A DNA stretch of 11,100 nt, taken from a virus. Shown piece by piece: positions 1 through 11,100 of this stretch. The notes below the pieces were generated by a model, which ran no database searches, was not told the origin of the DNA, and worked only from the letters and a program-made list of their open reading frames with translations. Position 1 is the first letter of the stretch. Each line of letters starts with the position of its first letter. The position numbers were made by a program, and so were the translations under genes. The stretch lies in UHGV virus genome UHGV-0074791; one strand, given 5' to 3'.

Positions 1-417
1 TCAGCAGCCACCCTTGGCACCGTTGGCTGATTTTTTCGCGGCTGCCGTATTCTGTGCAACCGCGGAGGCGTTACGTGACACCTCTTCCACCATCTGCTCA
101 AAGCGGCGCAGTGCCTCCGGTCGGACATCATCCTCCGTCATGGCACCGAGAAAATCATTCAGCGTACCTGGTCTGGAACCTTCATAGACGGTAATGGTCC
201 CGGCATGTGATGGCGGGAATCCCTCCACCAACAGACTGACGCTGTACTGACCATACTCGACGTCCATTGTGTAACGCCCGGCTTCATCCGGGTTTTCTGA
301 GGCCACTGTGTTCACCACCACCGTGGTGCTGTTGCGCCTGGCCTTTAGCTGAATGGTGCAGTTTTGTATCGGCTTACCTGCGCCATCTTTCAGTACACCT
401 GAAATCCGTACTGCCAT
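1..417 (-). CDS. stf: Lambda-like side tail fibre protein (Stf), N-terminal 138 aa; gene continues beyond the left edge of the window
   Basis: ATG is the reverse complement of 415-417 and the frame stays open to position 1. The N-terminus MAVRISGVLKDGAGKPIQNCTIQLKA...YGQYSVSLLVEGFPPSHAGTITVY matches my recollection of the phage lambda Stf N-terminus almost residue for residue. It sits immediately downstream of lom on the same strand, as in the lambda order J-lom-stf. Confidence 0.85.
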   Translation of the reverse strand: MAVRISGVLKDGAGKPIQNCTIQLKARRNSTTVVVNTVASENPDEAGRYTMDVEYGQYSVSLLVEGFPPSHAGTITVYEGSRPGTLNDFLGAMTEDDVRPEALRRFEQMVEEVSRNASAVAQNTAAAKKSANGAKGGC

Positions 418-426
418 ATTCCCCCC

Positions 427-455
427 ACAAAAAAGCCCGCCTGAACCGGCGGGCT
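427..455 (-). terminator. Intrinsic terminator downstream of lom (minus-strand sense)
   Basis: Perfect 7-bp GC-rich stem (435-441 gcccgcc, 448-454 ggcgggc) with loop tgaacc; plus-strand A-run at 429-434 gives a T-run directly after the hairpin on the minus strand. Lies between the lom stop (482) and the stf start (417). Confidence 0.5.
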
Positions 456-481
456 GTCATAACACTGTGTTACCTGGCTAA

Positions 482-1081
482 TCAGAATTTATAACCGACA
501 CCCATGATGAAACCGTCAGTGCGCCAGTCGCCACTGCCGGAGCCTTCATAAGCAATATCAATGGCCACGGATTCGGTCGGGTTAAACTGCACGCCAGCTC
601 CCCACGCCAGAGACGTGTTGCTGTGGCGACCGTCATCACTTCCGGTCAGCACGTCGTGCGTTTTCCCCTTGTTGTCAGTTACGCGGAGATAATCCCCGGA
701 GAAAGTCGACACACGGCTGTAAGCCACACCCGCCATCGCATACGCGCTGAACCATTCATTCACGCGCACAGACGGCCCCGCCATCACGCTGAACCAGCGG
801 TTACGCACGGAATCTTCATGCCAGCGGGTATCGCTGTAATGGGTCAGCTGGCGATTCTTGTCTCCTGCATAGCTGAATGACGTCACCATCCCCAGTGTGT
901 CCGTAAACTCATAACGGTATTTCACGTTAATCCCGTTCAGATCATCACTGCCGGGAACGTTGGTCCGGGCATGAAGATACCCCGCGCTCAGCGTGGACTG
1001 ATGTTCAGATGCCCATGCAGGCGCACCGGATACGGCCAGACAAATGGCTGCGGACAAAATGGCGGCATAAAGTTTACGCAT
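482..1081 (-). CDS. lom: Lom/Ail family outer-membrane beta-barrel protein (lambda Lom-like moron)
   Basis: 199 aa. Signal peptide MRKLYAAILSAAICLAVSGAPAWA followed by the beta-barrel body; C-terminus ...IDIAYEGSGSGDWRTDGFIMGVGYKF is essentially the C-terminus I recall for lambda Lom and the Ail/OmpX/PagC family, ending in the terminal Phe. Positioned between the J-like gene and stf. Confidence 0.9.
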   Translation of the reverse strand: MRKLYAAILSAAICLAVSGAPAWASEHQSTLSAGYLHARTNVPGSDDLNGINVKYRYEFTDTLGMVTSFSYAGDKNRQLTHYSDTRWHEDSVRNRWFSVMAGPSVRVNEWFSAYAMAGVAYSRVSTFSGDYLRVTDNKGKTHDVLTGSDDGRHSNTSLAWGAGVQFNPTESVAIDIAYEGSGSGDWRTDGFIMGVGYKF

Positions 1082-1103
1082 AATTACCTCTCGCTTTTCT
1101 GCA

Positions 1104-1129
1104 ATAAAAAAGGCACCATTTCTGGTGCC
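1104..1129 (-). terminator. Intrinsic terminator between the J-like ORF and lom (minus-strand sense)
   Basis: Stem 1112-1118 ggcacca pairs with 1123-1129 tggtgcc, loop tttc; plus-strand A-run 1106-1111 gives a T-run after the hairpin on the minus strand. Confidence 0.45.
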
Positions 1130-1150
1130 CTTATATGGGTTATAACAATT

Positions 1151-1894
1151 TCAACGAATACTGATGCCGGAAGCGGCTTTTTTGGTCACAATCACCGTAC
1201 AGTCGGTGATATTGCCTGCCCCCTGATTGCCTTTCTGGAAAATCTTAAACTCCAGAGTGACGCTTCCCCTGCCACTCGGCATATCAATAACTGCACTGTA
1301 ACTACCGGGAATGGCCCCTTTAGTTTCTCTGGATGCGATTAATACGCCGTTTTTGCGAACTTCAAAACCATAACCCGTGTATCGCGTGCCTCCTGGGTTA
1401 TTTCCGCTCCCCGGATCGTCATACGCTATACCGTTAAAAATAATGGGCGGAATAATAATCTGGCGGTCAAAGTTATGATCATCGCTGATGGTGACTGTAA
1501 CCGTACCGTTTGGTGTTTCCGTGTTACCCCACGTACCGACTTTTTTCGGGAAGGCTTTTGATACAGCTTTAACGAAATCTCCTCTGACCTGGGTCGCCTC
1601 CAGCATGCCCTTAATCGTACAGTTCTGGTTAATCGTGACATTGTTGAGCGTTCCTGAGTTCGCATTCACACTGCCACTGATATCCGCATTTTTCGCCGTC
1701 AGTCTCCCGTCTGATGTCAGGGAAAATGCCGGAGGATTACCGCCGCTGGTAATGGTGGGGGCCGTCAGGCGTTTCAGGAACACTTCATTCATGAATATCT
1801 GATCGCCCTGACCAACAAACATCGGCTTTGTGTTGCCATTCGCAGGATTAATCATCGCAATCCTGTCTGCTGCCAGCAGCACCTGACTCTGCAT
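1151..1894 (-). CDS. Phage tail protein, probably the C-terminal part of a host-specificity (J-like) central tail fibre; likely a 5'-truncated remnant
   Basis: 247-aa ORF directly upstream of lom on the same strand, the position J occupies in lambdoid phages. Gly, Asn and Thr-rich beta-type sequence ([14 protein letters not shown]..., [10 protein letters not shown]) typical of tail-fibre distal domains. Far too short for a complete J (over 1000 aa), and the next genes upstream are early-region genes on the other strand. Confidence 0.5.
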
Positions 1895-1969
1895 GCCGTC
1901 AGGGGTATTCTCAATACCGGCACCGATATTCCCGCTCCACTGAAACGCCTTCTTCCTGACTATAAACGG

Positions 1970-2230
1970 ATGGAAGAAAAAATAGACGCCGTAATCCGTG
2001 AGAAATACGGGTTACCCCCGGTTATGAGCACGCCCGTGAAATATGCCGATCTCATCATGCTGGCAACTGAACGCCGCGATCTCGGGCTTGATGATGGCTC
2101 TTTCTGGCCTGTACTGGAAGGTATCCCGGCAACAGATATGTTCAAAGTTATTCCACTGGCACCGGGCCATGCCTATGGGATGTTTATGGAACGTTTTAAC
2201 GAGTTATCGGAGTTACGCAAATGCGCATGA
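1970..2230 (+). CDS. Small hypothetical phage early-region protein (86 aa)
   Basis: ATG at 1970. The frame is open upstream to a stop at 1712-1714 but contains no ATG, GTG or TTG before 1970. Its stop overlaps the start of the next gene within atgcgcATGA at 2221-2230. No family recognised. Confidence 0.45.
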
Positions 2231-2583
2231 ATGTTTTCGAAATGGAAGGGTTTCTTCGCGGGAAATGTGTACCGCGAGATCTGAAAGTGAACGAAACAAA
2301 TGCTGAGTACCTGGTACGTAAATTCGACGCGCTTGAAGCTAAATGTGCGGCACTGGAAAACAAAATAATACCAGTGTCAGCTGAACTGCCACCTGCAAAT
2401 GAAAGTGTTCTGTTATTTGATGCTAACGGAGAAGGCTGGCTAATTGGCTGGCGTTCTCTCTGGTACACCTGGGGACAAAAAGAAACCGGAGAATGGCAGT
2501 GGACATTTCAGGTCGGGGACCTTGAAAACGTCAATATCACTCACTGGGCAGTAATGCCGAAAGCACCGGAGAATAAGAAATGA
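2221..2583 (+). CDS. DUF551-family phage protein (true start may be the ATG at 2227)
   Basis: Sequence ...IIPVSAELPPANESVLLFDANGEGWLIGW...ITHWAVMPKAPE fits the DUF551 pattern as I recall it (conserved P-E, a Trp-rich core, and THW-x-x-P-x-x-P near the C-terminus), common in the int-proximal region of enterobacterial prophages. Coupled to the upstream gene by an ATGA overlap. Confidence 0.7.
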   Translation: MRMNVFEMEGFLRGKCVPRDLKVNETNAEYLVRKFDALEAKCAALENKIIPVSAELPPANESVLLFDANGEGWLIGWRSLWYTWGQKETGEWQWTFQVGDLENVNITHWAVMPKAPENKK

Positions 2584-2795
2584 GCGTGATAAAAACTCAT
2601 ACAGGAATTGTTATTACCCGAAACGGTCCGCAGGTAAAAAAACTGCACCAGACAAAGCGGATGTGGGTCGTCGGAAAAAACGAGTTTTACCACAAAGAAA
2701 CCGGACGCCGCCACTTTGCAGAAAATACGCGCCGCCGACTGCTCCTGGACAGCATCAGGCCAATTAAACAGGTAGCAACCAGAGAACAAAATTAA
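2580..2795 (+). CDS. Small basic hypothetical phage protein (71 aa)
   Basis: ORF starts at the ATG overlapping the stop of the DUF551 gene (2580-2583) and continues the same-strand gene string towards xis-int. No family recognised. Confidence 0.45.
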   Translation: MSVIKTHTGIVITRNGPQVKKLHQTKRMWVVGKNEFYHKETGRRHFAENTRRRLLLDSIRPIKQVATREQN

Positions 2796-2842
2796 TTATC
2801 AGGACTGAAATTTGATATTACTGCCCGTGTGCAGCGGGCTAA

Positions 2843-3061
2843 GTGGAGAAACATATGCTGAACCTCGATTGTGTTCCTATCTCAACTTATTGCAAAGAAA
2901 CTGGCGAAACTCCTGAAGCAATAAACAAACGTGTACAGCGCGGTGTTTGGCGTGAAGGTGTTCAGGTTTTAAAGGTTGAAGGCGTTAAGGAGAGGTGGAT
3001 TGATCTTAGTGAGGTTGCAAAATGGGCCAGACAAAACTGCTCAAACTACCGCGCGGCGTAA
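2843..3061 (+). CDS. xis: Excisionase-like protein (recombination directionality factor)
   Basis: 72-aa protein immediately upstream of, and overlapping by 40 bp, the tyrosine integrase gene, the classic xis-int arrangement. AGGAGA-like ribosome-binding site at about 2829-2834. Small basic protein with a helix-rich DNA-binding character (KETGETPEAINKRVQRGVW). Confidence 0.6.
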   Translation: MEKHMLNLDCVPISTYCKETGETPEAINKRVQRGVWREGVQVLKVEGVKERWIDLSEVAKWARQNCSNYRAA

Positions 3062-4191
3062 CAATCAGAAAACACCGTCAGGGAGAAACGATCAATATAA
3101 CTTTCACCTACAAAGGAGTTAAATGTCGTGAGCCACTTTCCAATCTGGAAGTAACACCAAAGAACATTAAATACGCCGAGCGTACACTCGGCGAAATTCA
3201 TAATAAGATCGAAAGGGGAACATTCATTTATGCGGAATATTTTCCCCGTTCTGCTCGTTTGAAAATTTTTGGTAATGCTGCTGCAGGCAAAACGGTAAAA
3301 ATGTACCTGGACGAATACCTTGAAATCTGCGAAACGAGAAAACTTTCACCATCTACGATTGGTGGTTATAAAAAATGCCGTAGTGCGTTAGCCTCACTCC
3401 ACATTTGCCCTGCAAGTGAATTAACACCAGCAATCCTGAAAGCGTGGATTCAAAGCCAGAAAACGACCTTAAAAACAATTCGCAACCAGTTATCTTTCCT
3501 GCGGTCAGCACTTGATGAAGCCGTAACCGATGGGGTACTTCAAATTAACCCCGTATCGTTGGTAACTGCTTCGCGCTACCAAAGTGATAAGTCAGAAGCA
3601 GAAAGCAGCTACGTGGTTGATCCGCTATCACCAGCAGAAGTTGATGCATTACTAGCAGCAGCCGGAAACAAACAATGGGAGAATCTGTTCCGGTTCGCTA
3701 TACATACAGGCCTGCGTAGTTCTGAATTATGTGCCCTTCGATGGCGTGATATCGACTTTGTTGGAAAAACTGCCCATGTCCAGAGCGCAAGTGTTGTCGG
3801 TGTTATCAAAGGAACAAAGACAAAAGCCGGTACTCGTAAAGTCGAACTGACAGAAGATGCAATGTTGGCGCTGATAAATCAGAAGCCATTTACATTCATG
3901 AAGGATGCTACAGTCTTTGAAGATCCAAAGACCAATAAGCCTTGGGCAAGTGCTGATGCAATTAGAAAAAAAGCATGGGTGCCAACATTGCGAAAAGCAG
4001 GTATTCGTTACAGAAACCCATATCAAACCAGACATACATTCGCCACCAGCCATATCAGCCGGGGAGCAAACCTGTTTTGGCTTGCGGTTCAAATGGGTCA
4101 TAAAGGACCAGAGATGTTATTTAGACATTATGGCTCATACCTCAAAGAATATGATGGAAATACATCTTTAAATAGAAAAAATAGATATTAG
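3022..4191 (+). CDS. int: Lambda-family tyrosine integrase (site-specific recombinase)
   Basis: 389 aa. N-terminal arm-binding-like region, then a catalytic domain with R (LRSSEL), H-x-x-R (RHTFATSHISRG), a later His (MGHKG) and the Tyr nucleophile (RHYGSYL). Overlaps xis as in lambda. Confidence 0.9.
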   Translation: MGQTKLLKLPRGVTIRKHRQGETINITFTYKGVKCREPLSNLEVTPKNIKYAERTLGEIHNKIERGTFIYAEYFPRSARLKIFGNAAAGKTVKMYLDEYLEICETRKLSPSTIGGYKKCRSALASLHICPASELTPAILKAWIQSQKTTLKTIRNQLSFLRSALDEAVTDGVLQINPVSLVTASRYQSDKSEAESSYVVDPLSPAEVDALLAAAGNKQWENLFRFAIHTGLRSSELCALRWRDIDFVGKTAHVQSASVVGVIKGTKTKAGTRKVELTEDAMLALINQKPFTFMKDATVFEDPKTNKPWASADAIRKKAWVPTLRKAGIRYRNPYQTRHTFATSHISRGANLFWLAVQMGHKGPEMLFRHYGSYLKEYDGNTSLNRKNRY

Positions 4192-4196
4192 TTTAG

Positions 4197-4221
4197 ATAA
4201 AAATGGCCTTTACAGGCCATT
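4197..4221 (-). terminator. Hairpin terminator downstream of the DarT-like operon, between convergent genes
   Basis: Perfect 8-bp stem 4202-4209 aatggcct pairs with 4214-4221 aggccatt, loop ttac; plus-strand A-run 4197-4201 gives a T-run after the hairpin on the minus strand. Sits between the int stop (4191) and the stop of the 4224-4913 gene. Confidence 0.45.
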
Positions 4222-4223
4222 AT

Positions 4224-4913
4224 TCATATCAATGTATGTTGAATAGAATAATTTTCAACACCATAATGAGATGCTAATTTTGATAAAAAACCATCCTTTG
4301 AAGATAAAACATCATCTAACATATTTCGTCTTACTAAAGAGACAAAAAGTGCAGCTGCTCTGGCTTGGCAATTAATAGATTTCGCTGGATTAAATTCAAT
4401 ATCAGTAAACCCATCAAAATTTAATAGATGGAGTGCTAGATTTTTGTTTTGATTGAGCGCACTCAAATATAACCAATCATAAAAAGCAGTCCTGGGGACA
4501 ATGGGCCATATTGTATTATAAAATTTGAAGTTAACTAATCCCCCAGATTCCTTTAATCTCATATCTTTTTTTGCTTCTATCGAGCTTTTATCTAAGATAT
4601 CGACATATGGTCCTCCCATTTCAAATACTTTACTTGCTTGAAATGCAGATTCAACTGTAAACTCTTTCCCAAGTCTTTTCGTCTTTATTCTTAGATTAAA
4701 TGCACTAAGTGCTACCCCCAGCGCATCTTCGGATTTACTAGAAATTTCCAACAAAGAGTTCAATCCCTGCTCATTCGCTGCTGTATGTAACGCCCTGATC
4801 GATTTTTGCTTTTGCGTTTTAGACATACCAGGAGCCCAAGGAAAATCCACATCCTTCGTGATCGATAGTAAGTTCCCTGCGTTTGTAGGGACGAAAACAG
4901 GTCTAACAGCCAT
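4224..4913 (-). CDS. Hypothetical 229-aa protein, second gene of the DarT-like operon; candidate antitoxin or ADP-ribose-removing partner of unrecognised family
   Basis: ATG (reverse complement of 4911-4913) lies 3 nt after the stop of the upstream DarT-like gene, with a ribosome-binding site (AGGA) embedded in that gene's 3' end. I see no macrodomain signature (no GGGV-type glycine loop) and no clear NADAR-like motifs. AT-rich codon usage matches its partner. Confidence 0.6.
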   Translation of the reverse strand: MAVRPVFVPTNAGNLLSITKDVDFPWAPGMSKTQKQKSIRALHTAANEQGLNSLLEISSKSEDALGVALSAFNLRIKTKRLGKEFTVESAFQASKVFEMGGPYVDILDKSSIEAKKDMRLKESGGLVNFKFYNTIWPIVPRTAFYDWLYLSALNQNKNLALHLLNFDGFTDIEFNPAKSINCQARAAALFVSLVRRNMLDDVLSSKDGFLSKLASHYGVENYSIQHTLI

Positions 4914-4916
4914 AAC

Positions 4917-5540
4917 TTATCCTAAATAATAATGCCTCTGAGAATAAAGTGTTCTAGCATTAAGATTATCATAATATCTCTGTATTGTCTGTGGATATAA
5001 TCTCTTGAAATGTTCAGCAGATTCTTTGTTAGGGTGAAAAGTGCTTATAATATATGAGGGAGGAATTTTTTCAAATACCAGTATTTCAGCTTGAACATCC
5101 GTCGTATACTCACTTGGAAGGTTTACATCTCTCTGAATCCCAAAAACATTCTCTGAAAACAAAGCACTAAATGCCTCAGCTCCTTTCATCAAATCAAGAT
5201 TTATAAAACGAACGTTATTCGAAGCTGCGTTGGTAGGATAAAAAGCGCAATCCTTAGCCCAAAGAACAGATGGATTGATTTCTAATATAACCCAGTCCCC
5301 AGGCTTTAAACATCTATATTTATAAAACATTTTTGCATTAGGGTAACTTACGGACAAACAAATCGCATCTGGATGACCATCAATCCTTTCTTCATCATTA
5401 CAATTATATTCATTATTTTCATTATCAAGTTCTGAACGAGACATAAGGCCATTATCTAAAATGGAAGTTAGATTATCGCTATGTGTAAAATGAAACAAGC
5501 TACGAATATTACGTTGCTGAATTATTTCCTGTATTGTCAT
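4917..5540 (-). CDS. DarT-like (DUF4433) ADP-ribosyltransferase, putative DNA-targeting toxin
   Basis: 207 aa. N-terminal LFHFTHSDNLTSILDNGL resembles the DarT hallmark (YHFTH-x-NL-x-SIL); a C-proximal QAEILV segment fits the catalytic-glutamate motif of the DarT ART fold. Size is right for DarT, and it is the first gene of a tightly coupled two-gene operon. Confidence 0.6.
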   Translation of the reverse strand: MTIQEIIQQRNIRSLFHFTHSDNLTSILDNGLMSRSELDNENNEYNCNDEERIDGHPDAICLSVSYPNAKMFYKYRCLKPGDWVILEINPSVLWAKDCAFYPTNAASNNVRFINLDLMKGAEAFSALFSENVFGIQRDVNLPSEYTTDVQAEILVFEKIPPSYIISTFHPNKESAEHFKRLYPQTIQRYYDNLNARTLYSQRHYYLG

Positions 5541-5565
5541 AAAACATCCATTTACTTCATGTAAA

Positions 5566-5589
5566 TATATGTTTTATATATAACATATA
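5566..5589. promoter_or_regulatory. Palindromic candidate operator in the promoter region of the DarT-like operon
   Basis: tatatgtt (5566-5573), an 8-bp AT spacer, then aacatata (5582-5589): a perfect 8-bp inverted repeat about 26 bp upstream of the DarT-like start codon at 5540. Confidence 0.3.
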
Positions 5590-5668
5590 CCTCAAGTATC
5601 CACAAAGGATACGCATGTGATCTACTTCAAATAAAAGCTATAAATTACAGTTATTTACCATTAATAGA

Positions 5669-5698
5669 ACGCGGGTTCAACTCCCGCCAGCTCCACCA
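5669..5698 (+). other. att core: 30-bp copy of the 3' end of tmRNA (ssrA), ending in CCA; not a full tmRNA gene
   Basis: acgcgggttcaactcccgccagctccacca matches the 3' terminus of E. coli tmRNA (...GGACGCGGGUUCAACUCCCGCCAGCUCCACCA). Sequence upstream of 5669 has no resemblance to the tmRNA body, so this is an integration-site repeat rather than the gene. Confidence 0.8.
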
Positions 5699-5734
5699 AA
5701 TATTGATGTACTGAAGTTCAGTAAAGTCTACTAA

Positions 5735-5766
5735 GCCCGCACAGCACAAGCTCTGCGGGCTTTTTT
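5735..5766 (+). terminator. Intrinsic terminator downstream of the ssrA-derived att core
   Basis: Stem 5735-5741 gcccgca pairs with 5754-5760 tgcgggc, followed directly by tttttt at 5761-5766. Confidence 0.55.
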
Positions 5767-5823
5767 ACGTCTATTGTAGTCTAGTGAGAATTGCTGAGAA
5801 CTACGAGTTATGGCACCCTGAAT

Positions 5824-5860
5824 GGGACCCACGAAGATGGGTCCTAAAATCGAGGGTCCC
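5824..5860. promoter_or_regulatory. Three copies of a palindromic GGGWCC(C) element at exact 15-bp spacing in the leader of the P4-type integrase
   Basis: gggaccc at 5824-5830, gggtcc at 5839-5844 and gggtccc at 5854-5860, ending 5 bp before the integrase ATG. Confidence 0.3.
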
Positions 5861-5864
5861 AAAC

Positions 5865-7094
5865 ATGGCCAAAATCGCTAAGAAGCTCACTGACACTGAA
5901 ATCAAAAGCACCAAACCTGCCGAAAAAGAGGTTAACCTTTTTGACGGCGATGGTTTGCTGTTGCGAATCGCTCCCCTGGCGAAGGGAGGGAAGAAAAATT
6001 GGTATTTCAGATATGCAGTGCCTGTGACCAAAAAGCGAACTAAGGTGAGCTTAGGAACCTATCCTCACCTTACACTTGCGAAGGCACGAGCTTTACGTGA
6101 TGAATACTTGTCGTTGCTTACAAATGGTATAGACCCCCAAGTTCATAACAACCAAAAAGCCAATGCACTGAAAGATGCCACGGAACATACATTTCAAGCA
6201 GTAGCCAAGAAGTGGCTTGATGAGAAAGTCAAAACGTCAGGCATCTCCCAAGATCATGCTAACGACATCTGGCGAAGCCTAGAGAGAAATATCTTTTCCA
6301 CATTGGGTGATACCCCAATTAAGGAGATTCGCCCTAAAATGCTTAAACAGCATTTAGAACCCATAGAAAAACGAGGTGTCCTTGAAACACTTCGCCGCAT
6401 CATATCCCGCCTGAATGAAATTTTCCGCTATGCAGCAACAGAAGAACTCATAGAATTCAACCCGGCAGACAACCTGGGGCAACGGTTCAGCAAGCCAAAA
6501 AAACAGAATATGCCAGCATTACCCCCTTCCGAACTCCCTCGCTTCTTGGTTGCTCTAAACAATGCTTCTATCCGTTTGGAAACAAGGCTACTGATTGAGT
6601 GGCAACTTCTCACATGGGTTCGCCCAGGTGAAGCTGTTCGCACAAGATGGTCAGATATTGATATTGAAACTGGCATGTGGAACATCCCGGCGGAGTTTAT
6701 GAAAATGAAGAAGCCTCACAAAGTTCCACTGAGCAAAGAAGCTTTGCGAGTTTTGGATTTAATGAAAGTCATCAGCGGGCATAGAGAGTGGGTGTTCCCC
6801 AGTATCAAAGCTCCACTCAATCACATGCATGAACAAACAGCTAATGCGGCCATAATCCGTATGGGTTTCGGAGGTGAGCTTGTAGCTCACGGTATGCGAT
6901 CCATTGCTAGAACGGCTGCTGAGGAGTCTGGCAAGTTTAGGACTGATGTCTTAGAAGCCGCCCTTGCCCACTCGAAGAAAGATGAAATAATTGCAGCCTA
7001 CAATCGTGCAGAGTATCTCACTGAACGGGTGGTTCTCATGCAATGGTGGAGTGACTATGTTTCGTCTCAAAAATGCAAAGTTATTGCCGCATAA
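5865..7094 (+). CDS. int: P4-type tyrosine integrase (N-terminal arm-binding domain plus phage-integrase catalytic domain)
   Basis: Start chosen at the MAKIAKKLTDTEIKSTKP... ATG (5865), typical of P4-family integrases, rather than the upstream ATG at 5784. Contains F-DGDGL, H-x-x-R (AHGMRSIART) and a Tyr nucleophile region (AAYNRAEYL). Lies directly downstream of the tmRNA 3'-end repeat, as CP4-57 intA does in E. coli K-12. Confidence 0.9.
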   Translation: MAKIAKKLTDTEIKSTKPAEKEVNLFDGDGLLLRIAPLAKGGKKNWYFRYAVPVTKKRTKVSLGTYPHLTLAKARALRDEYLSLLTNGIDPQVHNNQKANALKDATEHTFQAVAKKWLDEKVKTSGISQDHANDIWRSLERNIFSTLGDTPIKEIRPKMLKQHLEPIEKRGVLETLRRIISRLNEIFRYAATEELIEFNPADNLGQRFSKPKKQNMPALPPSELPRFLVALNNASIRLETRLLIEWQLLTWVRPGEAVRTRWSDIDIETGMWNIPAEFMKMKKPHKVPLSKEALRVLDLMKVISGHREWVFPSIKAPLNHMHEQTANAAIIRMGFGGELVAHGMRSIARTAAEESGKFRTDVLEAALAHSKKDEIIAAYNRAEYLTERVVLMQWWSDYVSSQKCKVIAA

Positions 7095-7156
7095 CTCTCC
7101 CATGATGGATTAACTATCTTGATTTAGTTAAAGAATTAATAATCACACCATTAACC

Positions 7157-7206
7157 TATGTGGACTAAGCATAGCCATTTACAAATGGGGACATTGAGTC
7201 CACATA
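7157..7206. repeat. 50-bp imperfect palindrome with a nested central palindrome; candidate recombinase or regulator binding site
   Basis: Outer arms tatgtggact (7157-7166) and agtccacata (7197-7206) are a perfect 10-bp inverted repeat; 18 of 25 positions are symmetric overall; the centre ccatttacaaatgg is itself palindromic. No T-run follows, so it does not look like a terminator. Confidence 0.35.
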
Positions 7207-7376
7207 ACGAAAGCTGTCGGTCATATCAGCTAAATAATTCACATCTCTTCTCGATTATCATACACCTCGAAGATCTACCAAATTCGCTCTAATCAATGAT
7301 AAAACAGTTGAATTCGGTTGAAATTTGATCAATTTTATCCACTACATTGTATTGAATCATCCATGAGGTTTCGTGC

Positions 7377-8933
7377 ATGGCTAGCGAAAATGACAAAAAT
7401 CATAGAGTTAGGGTCGCGCAGTACTTGAGGATGTCTACCGACCATCAGCAATATTCTTTACATAATCAGTCCGAATATATCAAAGATTATGCTGAAAAGA
7501 ACAATATGGAAATCGCTTATACCTACGATGATGCAGGTAAGAGCGGAGTCAGTATCATAGGCCGGCATTCTTTGCAGCAGTTACTTAGTGATGTAGAACA
7601 AAAGAAAATAGATATACAGGCTGTATTATTTTATGATGTGAGCCGTTTTGGTCGTTTTCAAAATAGTGATGAAGCGGCATATTATTCCTTTCTATTTGAG
7701 AGAAATGGTGTAGATCTTATATATTGTTCCGAACCTATACCCACTAAAGATTTCCCTTTAGAGTCCTCTGTTATACTGAATATAAAAAGATCTAGTGCTG
7801 CATATCACAGCAGGAATCTATCTGATAAGGTATTTATAGGGCAAGTAAATTTAATAAAGCTTGGTTATCATCAAGGCGGTATGGCTGGTTATGGGCTGAG
7901 ACGTCTTTTAGTAGACGAAAATGGCATAGCTAAAGAAATATTGAGTTTCCGCAAAAGAAAGAGTATTCAAACAGATAGGGTAATATTAATTCCGGGACCA
8001 AAAAATGAAATAAAAATTGTAAATAGAATATATGATCTCTTTATAGATAATAACGTCCCAGAATTCATTATTGCTGAGAGATTAAATGAACAGAACATAC
8101 CTGCAGAAAATGGAACATTATGGACTCGTGCAAAAATACATCAAATTTTGACAAATGAAAAATATATTGGAAACAACATATATAACAAAACCTCATCTAA
8201 ATTAAAAAGTAGGCTTGTAAAAAACCCCAAACATGAATGGGTTAGATGTGACAAGGCATATAAACCTATTATTTCAAAGAAAAAATACAATAAAGCTCAA
8301 GAAATAATTCAGCTCCGATCCATTCATTTGACTAATGAAGATCTATTAGAAAAACTAAAACAAAAATTAGAATCTAATGGAAAACTATCAGGCTTTATCA
8401 TTGATGAAGATGATACAGGCCCTTCATCTTCTGTTTATAGAACCCGATTTGGTGGTCTTTTAAGAGCATATACTTTGATTGGTTATAAGCCAGAACATGA
8501 TTACAGCTATATCCAAATAAATGAAGCACTAAGATCATTTTACTCAGGCATAATTGAGGATTTTAAGGGGGAAATTTTAAAAAGCAACTGCTATATAGAC
8601 GAATATAAATATGCACCAATGCTTTACATCAATGATGAGTTTTTAATTTCCGTCCTTATTACTAAATGCACACATATGAAATCGGGTAAACTCAGATGGA
8701 AAGTCCGGTTTGATAACTCACAGAAAGCAGACATAACAATTGTTATACGAATGGATTCACAAAATATTTCACCACTTGATTTTTATATCATACCAAAGAT
8801 TGAAAACGAATATAGTAAAATGTGGATGACGGAAACAAACAACATTCGATTAGATCTCTATAGATTTGATAATCTGGATAAACTTCTACAAATTATTACT
8901 CGCATGAAAGTGAGGGAACTATATGCTGCCTGA
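7377..8933 (+). CDS. Large serine recombinase (resolvase/invertase-type catalytic domain plus recombinase domain)
   Basis: 518 aa. N-terminal VAQYLRMSTDHQ holds the serine-recombinase catalytic Ser motif (Y-x-R-x-S-T-x-x-Q), followed by DDAGKSG and LFYDVSRFGR motifs of the resolvase domain, then a recombinase-domain-like region (IKIVNRIYDLF..., W-x-x-x-KI-x-QILTNEKYIG). GAGG ribosome-binding site 8 nt before the ATG. Strongly AT-rich. Confidence 0.85.
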   Translation: MASENDKNHRVRVAQYLRMSTDHQQYSLHNQSEYIKDYAEKNNMEIAYTYDDAGKSGVSIIGRHSLQQLLSDVEQKKIDIQAVLFYDVSRFGRFQNSDEAAYYSFLFERNGVDLIYCSEPIPTKDFPLESSVILNIKRSSAAYHSRNLSDKVFIGQVNLIKLGYHQGGMAGYGLRRLLVDENGIAKEILSFRKRKSIQTDRVILIPGPKNEIKIVNRIYDLFIDNNVPEFIIAERLNEQNIPAENGTLWTRAKIHQILTNEKYIGNNIYNKTSSKLKSRLVKNPKHEWVRCDKAYKPIISKKKYNKAQEIIQLRSIHLTNEDLLEKLKQKLESNGKLSGFIIDEDDTGPSSSVYRTRFGGLLRAYTLIGYKPEHDYSYIQINEALRSFYSGIIEDFKGEILKSNCYIDEYKYAPMLYINDEFLISVLITKCTHMKSGKLRWKVRFDNSQKADITIVIRMDSQNISPLDFYIIPKIENEYSKMWMTETNNIRLDLYRFDNLDKLLQIITRMKVRELYAA

Positions 8934-9819
8934 AAAAAATGAATTCTCAATAATTCAAATTGAGATTGCAAAAATAAAATTTCTTAACCCACGAACAAGA
9001 AATAAGGTAGTGCATGAAGAAATAAAGGAAAGCATAAAAAAAAGAGGATTAAGCAAGCCAATAAGCGTAATAGCTATTGATGAAGGCGATTTCAAATATG
9101 CTTTAATTTGTGGTCAAGGGAGAATAGAGGCTCTCGTTGCATTAGGTGAAACTATTATTCCAGCAATTATAAGAGATGTATCAGAAGAAGATGCTTACGT
9201 TATGAGTTTAGTTGAAAACATTGCAAGGAGAAGACCACGTTCTAATGAGTTATTACAGGTGATTAAAGACATGAAAATCAGAGGACTTTCAGACTCCGAA
9301 ATAAGTGAGATTACTGGATATTCATCGAACTGGGTGAGCAGTATTAATATGCTACTTGATAAGGGAGAGCATAAACTTCTCTCAGCAGTCGAACGGGGTA
9401 ATTTGCCTCTGTATCTCGCAGTGCAATTTGCAAGATGTGAAACTGAGGAAGCACAAGATATTCTTACCGAAGCATATGATAAAAAATTAATAAAAAGTCG
9501 GGACATTATAAAGATAAAACACATTCTAAATCAAAGAACAGTTGGGAATAAAGGTGCAAAAGCAGCCGGATTTTATTATCACAAACCATCAAAAAGGATG
9601 ACTGCAGAGGAGTTGATTGAGCTTTATGAAAATAGTATCGCTGAACATAAATCTGTTTATAACAACTCAAAATTCATAAAAACCAACCTACTAATAGTAA
9701 ATGAGATTTTTAACATCATAATGATGAATAAAAGCTTTCAACATATACTTGAACAAGAGAATCTTTCAGAACTACCATCTCAGATATTAACCCCAGTAAA
9801 CAAAGAGGTATTAAAATGA
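8923..9819 (+). CDS. ParB/Srx-fold N-terminal domain protein (ParB-like), paralogue 1
   Basis: 298 aa. ISVIAIDEGDFKYALICGQGRIEALVALGETIIPAIIRDV...SLVENIARRRPRS follows the ParB N-terminal domain pattern (Pfam ParBc, PF02195) with arginine-rich box-III-like ENIARRR, but box II is GQGR rather than canonical GERR. Start overlaps the recombinase stop by 11 bp; GAGGG ribosome-binding site upstream. Confidence 0.75.
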   Translation: MLPEKNEFSIIQIEIAKIKFLNPRTRNKVVHEEIKESIKKRGLSKPISVIAIDEGDFKYALICGQGRIEALVALGETIIPAIIRDVSEEDAYVMSLVENIARRRPRSNELLQVIKDMKIRGLSDSEISEITGYSSNWVSSINMLLDKGEHKLLSAVERGNLPLYLAVQFARCETEEAQDILTEAYDKKLIKSRDIIKIKHILNQRTVGNKGAKAAGFYYHKPSKRMTAEELIELYENSIAEHKSVYNNSKFIKTNLLIVNEIFNIIMMNKSFQHILEQENLSELPSQILTPVNKEVLK

Positions 9820-10712
9820 TTCAGATACGTTTTGGCGATAATTTTATTTACCTGGAAACTAATAAGTTAATTCCATCTAAGGAATTATTAGAAAACGTAA
9901 AGCGAAGCCATAAATATCATCAAATAGTTACCTCTATCGAAAGCTTAGGTATTATTGAACCAATAATAGTATTCTATGACAAAGATAAAGATGTCACTAA
10001 GATACTTGATGGCCATTTAAGGGTTGAGGCTTTAAAAGACTTAGGTATAGAAAAAGCTCCATGTATACTTTCGAGCATAGATGATGCTTTCACTCCTAAC
10101 AAACAAGTGAATCATATAAATGTAGTTGAAGAACATAGAATGATAATTAAGTCTCTGGCAAAAGTATCAATTGAAAAACTTAGTGCTGCTTTGGGCATAT
10201 CTGTTGATGCCATAAAAGATAAAGCTAATGTAATGAACGGTATAGATCCAAGTGTGATTGCGAAACTTTCTGATAAACCTATACCTAAGGCTACATTTGA
10301 TGTTTTGAGGAAAATGAAACCAATTCGTCAAATTGAAGCAGTCGGTACAATGATTAATTTTGATAATTATAGTAAAAAATTTGCAATGAGCATCTTGGAT
10401 GCAACACCGGCATCAATGATAGTAAATAAAGGGAAAAACACTCCCTATAAAAAGGACATAAAAAAAACCATACTTCGTCTGGAACAAGAAATGGCAACAA
10501 CTTCGGAAGAAACGAAAAAGCTTCAAACCGAGTATGGTTCAGATATGTTGAAATTCGTTATAATCCAGTCATATATTAATAAATTACTTGGCAATTCTAA
10601 AGTTCTTCATTGGTTCTTAGAAAACGAGGTTGATTATCTTAATGAGTTAAAAAGAATTTCTAGAATAAATTCTTTGGATGATAAGACTCTTACTGAAAAC
10701 AGCAAGTCATAG
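9816..10712 (+). CDS. ParB-like domain protein, paralogue 2 (more divergent)
   Basis: 298 aa, same length as paralogue 1. IESLGIIEPIIVFYDKDKDVTKILDGHLRVEALKDLGIEKAPCIL resembles the ParB N-terminal domain with DGHLR in place of GERR, followed by a helix-turn-helix-like segment (LSAALGISVDAIKDKA). ATGA start-stop overlap with the upstream gene and an AGAGG ribosome-binding site. Confidence 0.65.
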   Translation: MIQIRFGDNFIYLETNKLIPSKELLENVKRSHKYHQIVTSIESLGIIEPIIVFYDKDKDVTKILDGHLRVEALKDLGIEKAPCILSSIDDAFTPNKQVNHINVVEEHRMIIKSLAKVSIEKLSAALGISVDAIKDKANVMNGIDPSVIAKLSDKPIPKATFDVLRKMKPIRQIEAVGTMINFDNYSKKFAMSILDATPASMIVNKGKNTPYKKDIKKTILRLEQEMATTSEETKKLQTEYGSDMLKFVIIQSYINKLLGNSKVLHWFLENEVDYLNELKRISRINSLDDKTLTENSKS

Positions 10713-10954
10713 TCATGGTTTTATATAGCCTAAATAAACCAAGAAGTATACTTACACAACGACCTTCACGCCGAAGAAGCTGTCAGATACGCCAGCAACC
10801 AAAGCATTACGTTTAAGTGTCAGTCATTGATACGAAGGGATAACTGCGTATCAGCAGCCGGACATTGAGTCGAATAAAGGCTGGTAGAGAGGGACAGTTC
10901 TGTGTCACCGGGAGATTCGTCAGAAACATCAGCGGCAGAACAGATGAACCAGCA

Positions 10955-11100
10955 GGTAATGGTCCCAACTTATTGATAGTGTTTTATGTTCAGATAATGC
11001 CCGATGACTTTGTCATGCAGCTCCACCGATTTTGAGAACGACAGCGACTTCCGTCCCAGCCTTGCCAGATGTTGTCTCAGATTCAGATTATGTCGCTCAA
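10955..11100 (-). mobile_element. IS1 insertion sequence, right end (terminal inverted repeat and 3' part of insB); element continues past the right edge
   Basis: Minus-strand sequence from 10990 down to 10955 reads aacataaaacactatcaataagttgggaccattacc, matching the IS1 terminus as I recall it (...CACTATCAATAAGTTGGAGTCATTACC) apart from 2-3 mismatches. The adjacent frame encodes the InsB C-terminus. Confidence 0.85.
10970..11100 (-). CDS. insB: IS1 transposase InsB, C-terminal 43 codons (5' part lies outside the window)
   Basis: Minus-strand translation ...[42 protein letters not shown]-stop is the InsB C-terminus; the stop codon is the reverse complement of 10970-10972. Confidence 0.85.

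Follow-up and report, generated by a model that had tools for sequence, protein, structure and literature searches.

A displaced ssrA 3' end as the probable right junction of a lambdoid prophage remnant in front of a P4-type island in Escherichia coli

The 30-bp copy of the tmRNA gene end at positions 5669-5698 of the DNA analyzed here (UHGV virus genome UHGV-0074791, 11,100 nucleotides; hereafter the window) is very probably the attR core of an LLS-type lambdoid prophage, which would have integrated into the T-arm and acceptor end of ssrA while a P4-type island resided downstream of this gene. By its alignments, the window is assigned to the smpB-ssrA region of the E. coli chromosome. The repeat, the position of the junction, both integrase families, empty and singly occupied sites in comparator genomes and the attP structure of phage LLS can be read directly from the sequences. 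Both the lambdoid and the P4-type element are decayed, and their features are listed in Table 1.

Table 1. Features of the window and the arm segments compared with it (positions refer to the window unless another record is named).
Feature	Position	Strand	Basis
Side tail fibre gene (stf), 5' part	1..417	-	annotated 'phage tail protein' in PSS-10
lom (Ail/Lom outer-membrane protein)	482..1081	-	~96% DNA identity to lambdoid phages; PSS-10 annotation
Tail tip gene J, C-terminal 247 codons	1151..1894	-	Pfam Phage_Tail_Tip, Ig_GpJ_C
yfdR (5'-deoxynucleotidase), 3' fragment	1925..2230	+	E. coli 042 homology starts at 1925, inside full-length yfdR
Two small early-left-operon genes (DUF551 protein, 2221-2583; hypothetical, 2580-2795)	2221..2795	+	reading towards xis and int
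Excisionase-like gene, overlaps int start	2843..3061	+	88% identical to LLS gp33, annotated 'putative excisionase'
Tyrosine integrase, LLS-type lambdoid family, full length	3022..4191	+	Pfam Arm-DNA-bind_2 + Phage_int_SAM_5 + Phage_integrase
NADAR antitoxin of DarT1	4224-4913	-	Pfam NADAR-DarT1 1.4e-89
DarT1 ADP-ribosyltransferase toxin	4917-5540	-	Pfam DarT 6.8e-24; PADLOC DarT
Phage-side arm (P arm) of the right junction, AT-rich, unrelated to tmRNA	5541..5668	+	alignment
Displaced ssrA 3' end (T-arm, 3' acceptor strand, CCA); probable attR core of the lambdoid element	5669..5698	+	comparator alignments
Left end of the P4-type island with Rho-independent terminator	5699..5766	+	comparator alignment, fold, consensus scan
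P4-type (CP4-57 IntA-like) tyrosine integrase	5865..7094 (ATG 5865)	+	Pfam Arm-DNA-bind_3 + Phage_int_M + Phage_integrase
Island cargo: large serine recombinase (7377-8933), ParB/RepB-like proteins (8923-9819, 9816-10712)	7377..10712	+	domain searches
End of an IS1 copy, cutting the island short	10955..11100	.	comparator genomes
ssrA-downstream-like arm or native region compared	L002 11355-11525; L007 4001-4170; L010 9101-9260; L005 23487-23650		

The repeat (ACGCGGGTTCAACTCCCGCCAGCTCCACCA) agrees at every position with the final 30 nt of E. coli ssrA; the gene annotations of three complete genomes served as reference, and their 363-nt ssrA sequences do not differ from one another. About 2e-14 matches to a given 30-mer are expected by chance on both strands of 11.1 kb (2 x 11,100 / 4^30). 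Identity to ssrA extends by one further base to the right (A at 5699) and stops abruptly at 5669 on the left, where the AT-rich 128 bp in front of the repeat gave no alignment with the tmRNA body. ARAGORN detected no tmRNA or tRNA gene in the window, and the Rfam tmRNA model (RF00023) produced a partial match at 5618-5698 that stayed below threshold (22.6 bits, gathering score 47); the full tRNA-like domain, the pseudoknots and the tag reading frame of a tmRNA gene were found by neither of them in the window. Further pieces of at least 11 nt from the last 60 nt of ssrA were likewise absent elsewhere in the window. The ssrA alignment, ARAGORN and Rfam thus agree with the original prediction of an exact 30-bp tmRNA 3' end, including CCA, that has no tmRNA body upstream. 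In every oriented comparator locus, the copy has the direction of ssrA, and such a displaced fragment is one part of the Islander-type signature of an integrated element; another part, a full-length tyrosine integrase gene within the interval, is present to the left of the repeat.

This integrase reads towards the repeat and combines the Arm-DNA-bind_2 and Phage_integrase domains, which confirms the lambda-family integrase proposed for this side. It is 87% identical to the Int of the plaque-forming lambdoid phage LLS, and together with the Xis similarity given in Table 1 this places the element among the LLS-type ssrA-integrating lambdoid phages, although the excisionase-like product itself matched no Pfam or NCBIfam family. 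Kinship to LLS Int and the ssrA 3' end in the LLS attP predict that ssrA is the target of the left integrase. Of 5426 complete E. coli genomes, 396-412 carry the xis-int module, UTI89, CFT073, JJ1886, ATCC 11775 and 042 among them.

The early genes, xis and int are oriented towards attR, and J, lom and stf towards attL; this gene order and orientation fit a lambdoid prophage. What is left of the phage comprises the 5' part of stf, lom, the C-terminus of J, the 3' fragment of yfdR, two small genes, xis and int, and what is gone includes the rest of J, all immunity, replication, lysis and head genes and most tail genes. The element is a remnant, roughly 13-14 kb long, of an LLS-type phage and not a phage. 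The predicted lambdoid element is therefore upheld as an integrant at ssrA but not as a whole prophage, since J has been joined to yfdR by deletion. Similarity to the J genes of phages reaches as far as 1935 and yfdR similarity sets in at 1925, which defines an internal deletion junction at 1925-1935, and the J remnant is annotated in PSS-10 as 'phage tail tip protein, missing N-terminus'. The J and yfdR similarities share ~11 bp, and the junction may have arisen by microhomology-mediated deletion. The lambdoid element of E. coli 042 is far more complete and keeps cI/Cro-like, Q and lysis genes. Among the tail genes, the Lom product is identical to that of metagenome scaffold L011, in which the Pfam domain Ail_Lom was detected. 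The stf reading frame is truncated at 138 codons by a stop at window positions 1-3. The first ~24 bases of the window, which lie within the Ala-rich repeat region of stf, differ from PSS-10, 042 and L011 and give rise to this stop; this divergence of positions 1-24 could reflect repeat-mediated variation or a further rearrangement left of the window.

The genome of phage LLS (PQ299149) explains how such an element can end in a tmRNA fragment. Its gene order runs from a yfdR-like gene through xis, int and one cargo gene to a 39-bp annotated 'tmRNA pseudogene', which is followed by ~170 bp that resemble the DNA downstream of ssrA and contain a terminator, then by a BRO-N gene, an HTH/ImmA pair and further genes up to an invertase and a tail fibre. 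Opening the LLS circle at the ssrA fragment gives the order that is found between ssrA and the repeat in E. coli PSS-10, i.e. the two are circular permutations. LLS was described as containing 29 bp of the ssrA 3' end, where it should integrate, and CP4-57 as using the same gene with an unrelated integrase that is only 17% identical to that of LLS (PMC12315714). The ~170 bp of the LLS-type attP are 86-100% identical to the native E. coli region downstream of ssrA, terminator included. Because the attP copies both the ssrA end and these ~170 bp, prophages in lambdoid-only lysogens should be flanked by direct repeats of ~200 bp, compared with only 30-31 bp in the tandem state of the window.

To the right of the repeat, a 12-pair hairpin (5733-5762) and a subsequent T-run form a terminator that spans 5733-5766. 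Folding of 5669-5775 yielded -36.1 kcal/mol (z = -4.4), none of 200 shuffled sequences folded equally well, and the same hairpin was picked out by a consensus terminator scan. The integrase behind it scores 444.6 bits against NCBIfam NF007246 (cut-off 434) and is 48% identical to K-12 IntA, while the two integrases of the window share only ~25% identity over 133 aa. The fold, the consensus scan and the Pfam domains bear out the expected succession of a terminator and a P4-type integrase after the repeat. In island-only genomes the same terminator is located directly 3' of ssrA, and related terminators occupy this position in K-12 CP4-57 and in the P4-like satellite of strain AR_0369. In strain ECCWS199, the integrase of P4-type architecture directly follows ssrA and is co-oriented with it.

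The terminator segment also matched the model of the small RNA IsrM (RF02763, 329 nt) at 5712-5766 with 47.9 bits (E = 6.4e-11), far below the gathering score of 376. The alignment is near-perfect and confined to the last ~55 nt, comprising a small hairpin and the terminator after the repeat. According to Rfam, IsrM is an sRNA of a Salmonella island whose gene lies between STM2762 and STM2763, and it has been placed just upstream of STM2763 in the same orientation (PMC2330248). Judged from the match on the terminator and from the position and orientation of IsrM at STM2763, IsrM probably ends at a homologous terminator upstream of STM2763, and STM2763 may be the equivalent island integrase.

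The cargo of the P4-type island is a conserved three-gene module with overlapping frames, which encodes a 518-aa serine recombinase (Resolvase + Recombinase) and two 298-aa ParB_N/RepB-like proteins; in 042, a type I R-M system comes after this module. PADLOC assigned the three proteins to no defence system and returned only weak methyltransferase-like matches. IS1 truncates the island, and the displaced ssrA fragment that would mark its right end, as psaA does in K-12, has been lost. A third ssrA fragment as a mark of this right end was considered and dropped, since beyond the island neither the window nor PSS-10 nor ECCWS199 contains a piece of the ssrA tail of at least 11 nt.

In complete E. 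coli genomes, ssrA was encountered in four states, namely empty, with just a P4-type island, with just a lambdoid element, or with both in tandem, so that loci lacking one or both elements were available for comparison. At the empty site of C288, ~160 bp (ATCATGATTGG..., with a terminator at the end) separate ssrA from ypjA, and at that of the ST131 strain CU568-3 the same ~160 bp separate it from glaH. The sequence beginning with ATCATGATTGG directly follows ssrA in 2527 of 5426 genomes and is therefore regarded as the ancestral chromosomal DNA downstream of ssrA; in the two of these genomes that were inspected for an empty site, C288 and the ST131 strain, no inserted element was present at ssrA.

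The island-only genomes ECCWS199, LR-27, 2017.11.01CC and JSMCR1 match the window from precisely 5669 to 11100 with 99.3% identity, and their intact ssrA ends where the repeat ends. In genomes without the lambdoid element, homology to the window thus breaks precisely at the repeat, and fully empty sites exist in addition. The DNA right of the repeat therefore followed ssrA before the lambdoid element arrived, and the exact start of the island-only match at 5669 supports the repeat as the right junction of that element. Of the proposed 'original ssrA downstream context', one part holds, namely that the DNA of a resident island followed ssrA before the lambdoid integration; the empty sites identify this DNA as the left end of the island and not as ancestral chromosome.

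K-12 is a further island-only case, in which intA of CP4-57 lies directly downstream of ssrA, as stated in the original prediction, and psaA, a 14-bp right-end fragment that lacks T357, is followed by native downstream DNA. An alternative reading of K-12, a P4 island followed by a lambdoid remnant, was suggested by the 167 bp after psaA, which are 86-91% identical to the LLS/PSS-10 arm; it was rejected because this sequence directly follows ssrA in the 2527 genomes and is native DNA. Likewise rejected was pinH of K-12 as a remnant of an LLS-like Fin invertase, as no DNA similarity extends beyond the 167 bp. CFT073 represents the lambdoid-only state, with the same xis-int module, a different two-gene cargo, the displaced copy ACaCGGGTTCAACTCCCGCCAGCTCCACCA, native downstream DNA and glaH.

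In all four genomes of the tandem state (PSS-10, CFSAN061772, 042 and AR_0369), the order is ssrA, a lambdoid element, a displaced copy and a P4-type element, which leaves the lambdoid element next to ssrA; in AR_0369 the second position is occupied by a genuine P4-like satellite that contains psu, delta and icd-like genes. PSS-10 is the closest complete genome (99.4% identity over window positions 15-11100) and contains one extra IS5 just right of the J-yfdR junction that the window lacks. Its intact ssrA lies 7.1 kb left of the position corresponding to the window start, which is where an intact gene had been predicted, and the interval between ssrA and the repeat is occupied by the same remnant prophage. 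An intact ssrA at the near end is also present in CFSAN061772. Metagenome scaffold L011, the nearest one but not the contig of the window, is 99.56% identical to the window and ends inside the tail-fibre gene stf and thus before ssrA.

These comparators also refute the idea that the repeat is no integration junction but the last trace of a second tmRNA gene that decayed after duplication or as a pseudogene, a reading that we consider to have virtually no probability. It would account for the weak partial tmRNA match of Rfam that reaches upstream of the repeat, but decay would not spare 30 perfect bases beside zero similarity, as is observed at 5669, where upstream DNA becomes unalignable with the tmRNA body. 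Moreover, similarity to island-only genomes stops at this same breakpoint, and the same fragment is carried in the attP of a free phage.

The order of arrival was addressed by the same genomes, and the predicted integration of the lambdoid element after the island is favoured by them. The same IS1-truncated island is found without a lambdoid element in some genomes and behind various lambdoid elements in others. Lacking its right end, it cannot have entered as one piece in this form, an argument for the island as the earlier arrival. In addition, about half of the complete genomes match part of the segment from the repeat to the P4-type integrase, as opposed to ~7% with the lambdoid xis-int. 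The reverse order, an entry of the P4-type island into the displaced 30-bp ssrA copy at the right junction of an already resident lambdoid prophage, would result in the same layout and is unlikely but conceivable. The 14 bp of K-12 psaA correspond to the last 15 nt of ssrA minus T357 and fall wholly inside the 30-bp copy, and therefore a P4-type core would be present in the displaced fragment; furthermore, the middle copy of AR_0369 lacks T357 like psaA and precedes a genuine P4-like satellite. Against this order, the truncated island directly follows intact ssrA with 99.3% identity in several genomes that have no lambdoid element, the lambdoid elements in front of the window's island vary widely in content and cargo, as fits repeated arrivals before an old island, and the frequencies of about half and ~7% speak against it. 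It is even less probable that the tandem block was imported as a whole from another strain, by homologous recombination or transduction via flanking core genes. Both flanks, smpB-ssrA and glaH-gabP, consist of conserved core DNA, and the region is mosaic among strains, which speaks for such a transfer; however, it would leave the identity of the repeat unchanged and merely move the integration to the donor lineage.

On the favoured reading of an island followed by a phage, the order of events, the exact crossover and any remaining ability of the remnant to excise are inferred from the sequences, as follows. The host chromosome would already have carried a P4-type, CP4-57-like island directly 3' of ssrA when the phage arrived, and the phage attP with its ssrA end would have recombined with ssrA by tyrosine-integrase site-specific recombination. 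At the left junction, ssrA would have been rebuilt from the host 5' DNA and the phage's own 3' copy, and this junction would also have gained the phage arm with the ~170-bp copy of the native ssrA downstream region and its terminator. The right junction would consist of the other phage arm, the core and the previous ssrA-downstream DNA, i.e. AATATTGATG..., the terminator and the P4-type int. In this way the old gene end, the island terminator and the integrase would have been pushed to the far side of the prophage, which is their position in the window, and the ancestral downstream DNA, as imitated by the phage attP, would now adjoin the intact ssrA outside the window. A later internal deletion would have removed roughly 30 kb or more of the prophage and joined J to yfdR, with xis, int, both junctions, a few tail-fibre genes and the DarT1/NADAR cargo being kept, and the island would have been cut short by IS1.

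The position of strand exchange can be narrowed by polymorphisms. Displaced copies carry phage-derived mismatches at -28 (T in 042, A in CFT073), the LLS attP has a mismatch at -30, and the first difference between the arms falls on position +2 behind CCA. Strand exchange is therefore likely bounded to window positions 5672-5699, which correspond to the T-loop, the 3' T-stem or the acceptor strand. The repeat of CP4-57 comprises only the last ~15 nt of ssrA, and thus the two integrase families have different identity blocks in the same gene end.

The consequences of excision would differ between the elements. Excision of CP4-57 in K-12 deletes T357 and thereby inactivates tmRNA (PMC10107115). 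Excision of the remnant, in contrast, would restore a wild-type ssrA because the displaced copy of the window is perfect. T357 is missing from the displaced copy of AR_0369 (L004 ~9170-9200) as it is from K-12 psaA (L005 23473-23486; CCAGC-CCACCA). For some crossover points, lambdoid excision in AR_0369 could leave behind the same T357 deletion that inactivates tmRNA when CP4-57 excises.

The phage-side arm contains AAAGGATACGC at 5604-5614, a candidate arm-type integrase site. A shared k-mer search found no 7-mer common to the four phage-side arms of the window, 042, LLS and CFT073. The motif AAAGG(A/G)NNCG(C/T) is located ~69-80 bp left of the core in the otherwise unrelated arms of the window, 042 and LLS; the scan of the CFT073 arm was negative, and looser variants resembling AAAAGTTCCGC and AAAGAGCCGCG were seen by eye in roughly the same region. 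Two further copies are found in the host-like arm, at +115 and +126. The three matches in the window against 1.27 expected by chance are not significant, and the assignment of these copies as arm-type integrase sites is possible and suggestive only. Arm-type sites of LLS-type integrases may accordingly sit in host-mimicking DNA.

The slot between int and the repeat is filled in the window by the toxin-antitoxin pair DarT1/NADAR (4224-5540), which the original prediction had passed over. The same pair is found between int and core in PSS-10, CFSAN061772 and AR_0369. The slot carries an AAA ATPase and a methylase with a PD-Lambda-5_B match (5.8e-124) in 042 (L008 21323-24035), two genes of no assigned function in CFT073 (L016 8365-9553) and the single gene gp31 in LLS (L007 3126-3941). 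From this variety, the int-attP slot of the LLS-type family looks like a site for swapping defence cargo. A remnant of int, xis, cargo and att that has lost its phage functions may persist as a still-excisable mini defence island. That the LLS-type family combines host-mimicking arm sites, a defence-cargo swap slot and an excisable mini island, and in this sense goes beyond a simple ssrA integrator, is a tentative proposal that we regard as rather doubtful in its entirety.

For annotation, the analysis provides an exact right boundary of the prophage remnant (5669-5698) and the left boundary of the P4-type island, and it explains why a tmRNA fragment and an orphan terminator lie between a DarT toxin gene and an integrase. 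Multiple occupancy of ssrA and tandem arrays at tRNA and tmRNA genes are established biology, and the arrangement is ordinary and already known in kind; tandem integrative elements at these genes were reportedly treated by Williams in 2003 under the title 'Traffic at the tmRNA gene'. E. coli strains sample every occupancy state of ssrA. In the Islander survey, tmRNA genes were the most enriched target, and 125 tandem arrays were counted (PMC4383910). The window resembles the Islander/TIGER tandem arrays in its succession of a target gene predicted to be intact, an element, a displaced 3' fragment and a second element with its own integrase, and it departs from the strict Islander criterion in that its second island lacks a displaced fragment of its own.

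Among individual systems, LLS and the CFT073 prophage share with the window element an int, a variable cargo slot, the core and, beyond it, an arm of ~170 bp that resembles the DNA downstream of ssrA and contains a terminator, followed by a BRO-N gene, as well as the tail genes J, lom and stf. Different from LLS, the window element lacks all genes between J and yfdR and carries DarT1/NADAR instead of gp31, and different from both LLS and CFT073, its right junction adjoins a P4-type island and not native chromosome. The identity block with ssrA is 30 bp long in the window, 29 bp in LLS and 27 bp in 042 and CFT073. The right element resembles CP4-57 of K-12 in having a P4-type integrase of the same domain architecture just 3' of ssrA and co-oriented with it and, in front of the integrase, a related terminator that the island supplies. 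In contrast to CP4-57, its integrase is only 48% identical, its cargo is a serine recombinase and two ParB-like proteins without alpA, and its right end with the ssrA fragment has been lost to IS1; the displaced copy in the window is perfect, whereas that of K-12 lacks T357. A third use of the same site is found in P2-like temperate phages (SopEPhi, RE2010, SEN8, ESSI-2 and Klebsiella phages), which carry an exact match of at least 32 bases to window 5669-5700 in their attP. These belong to a different phage type, with no DNA similarity to the int region of the window in those records and no representative in the window itself. Thus, three unrelated integrase lineages, LLS-type lambdoid, P4-type and P2-like, reuse the same ~30 bases of ssrA.
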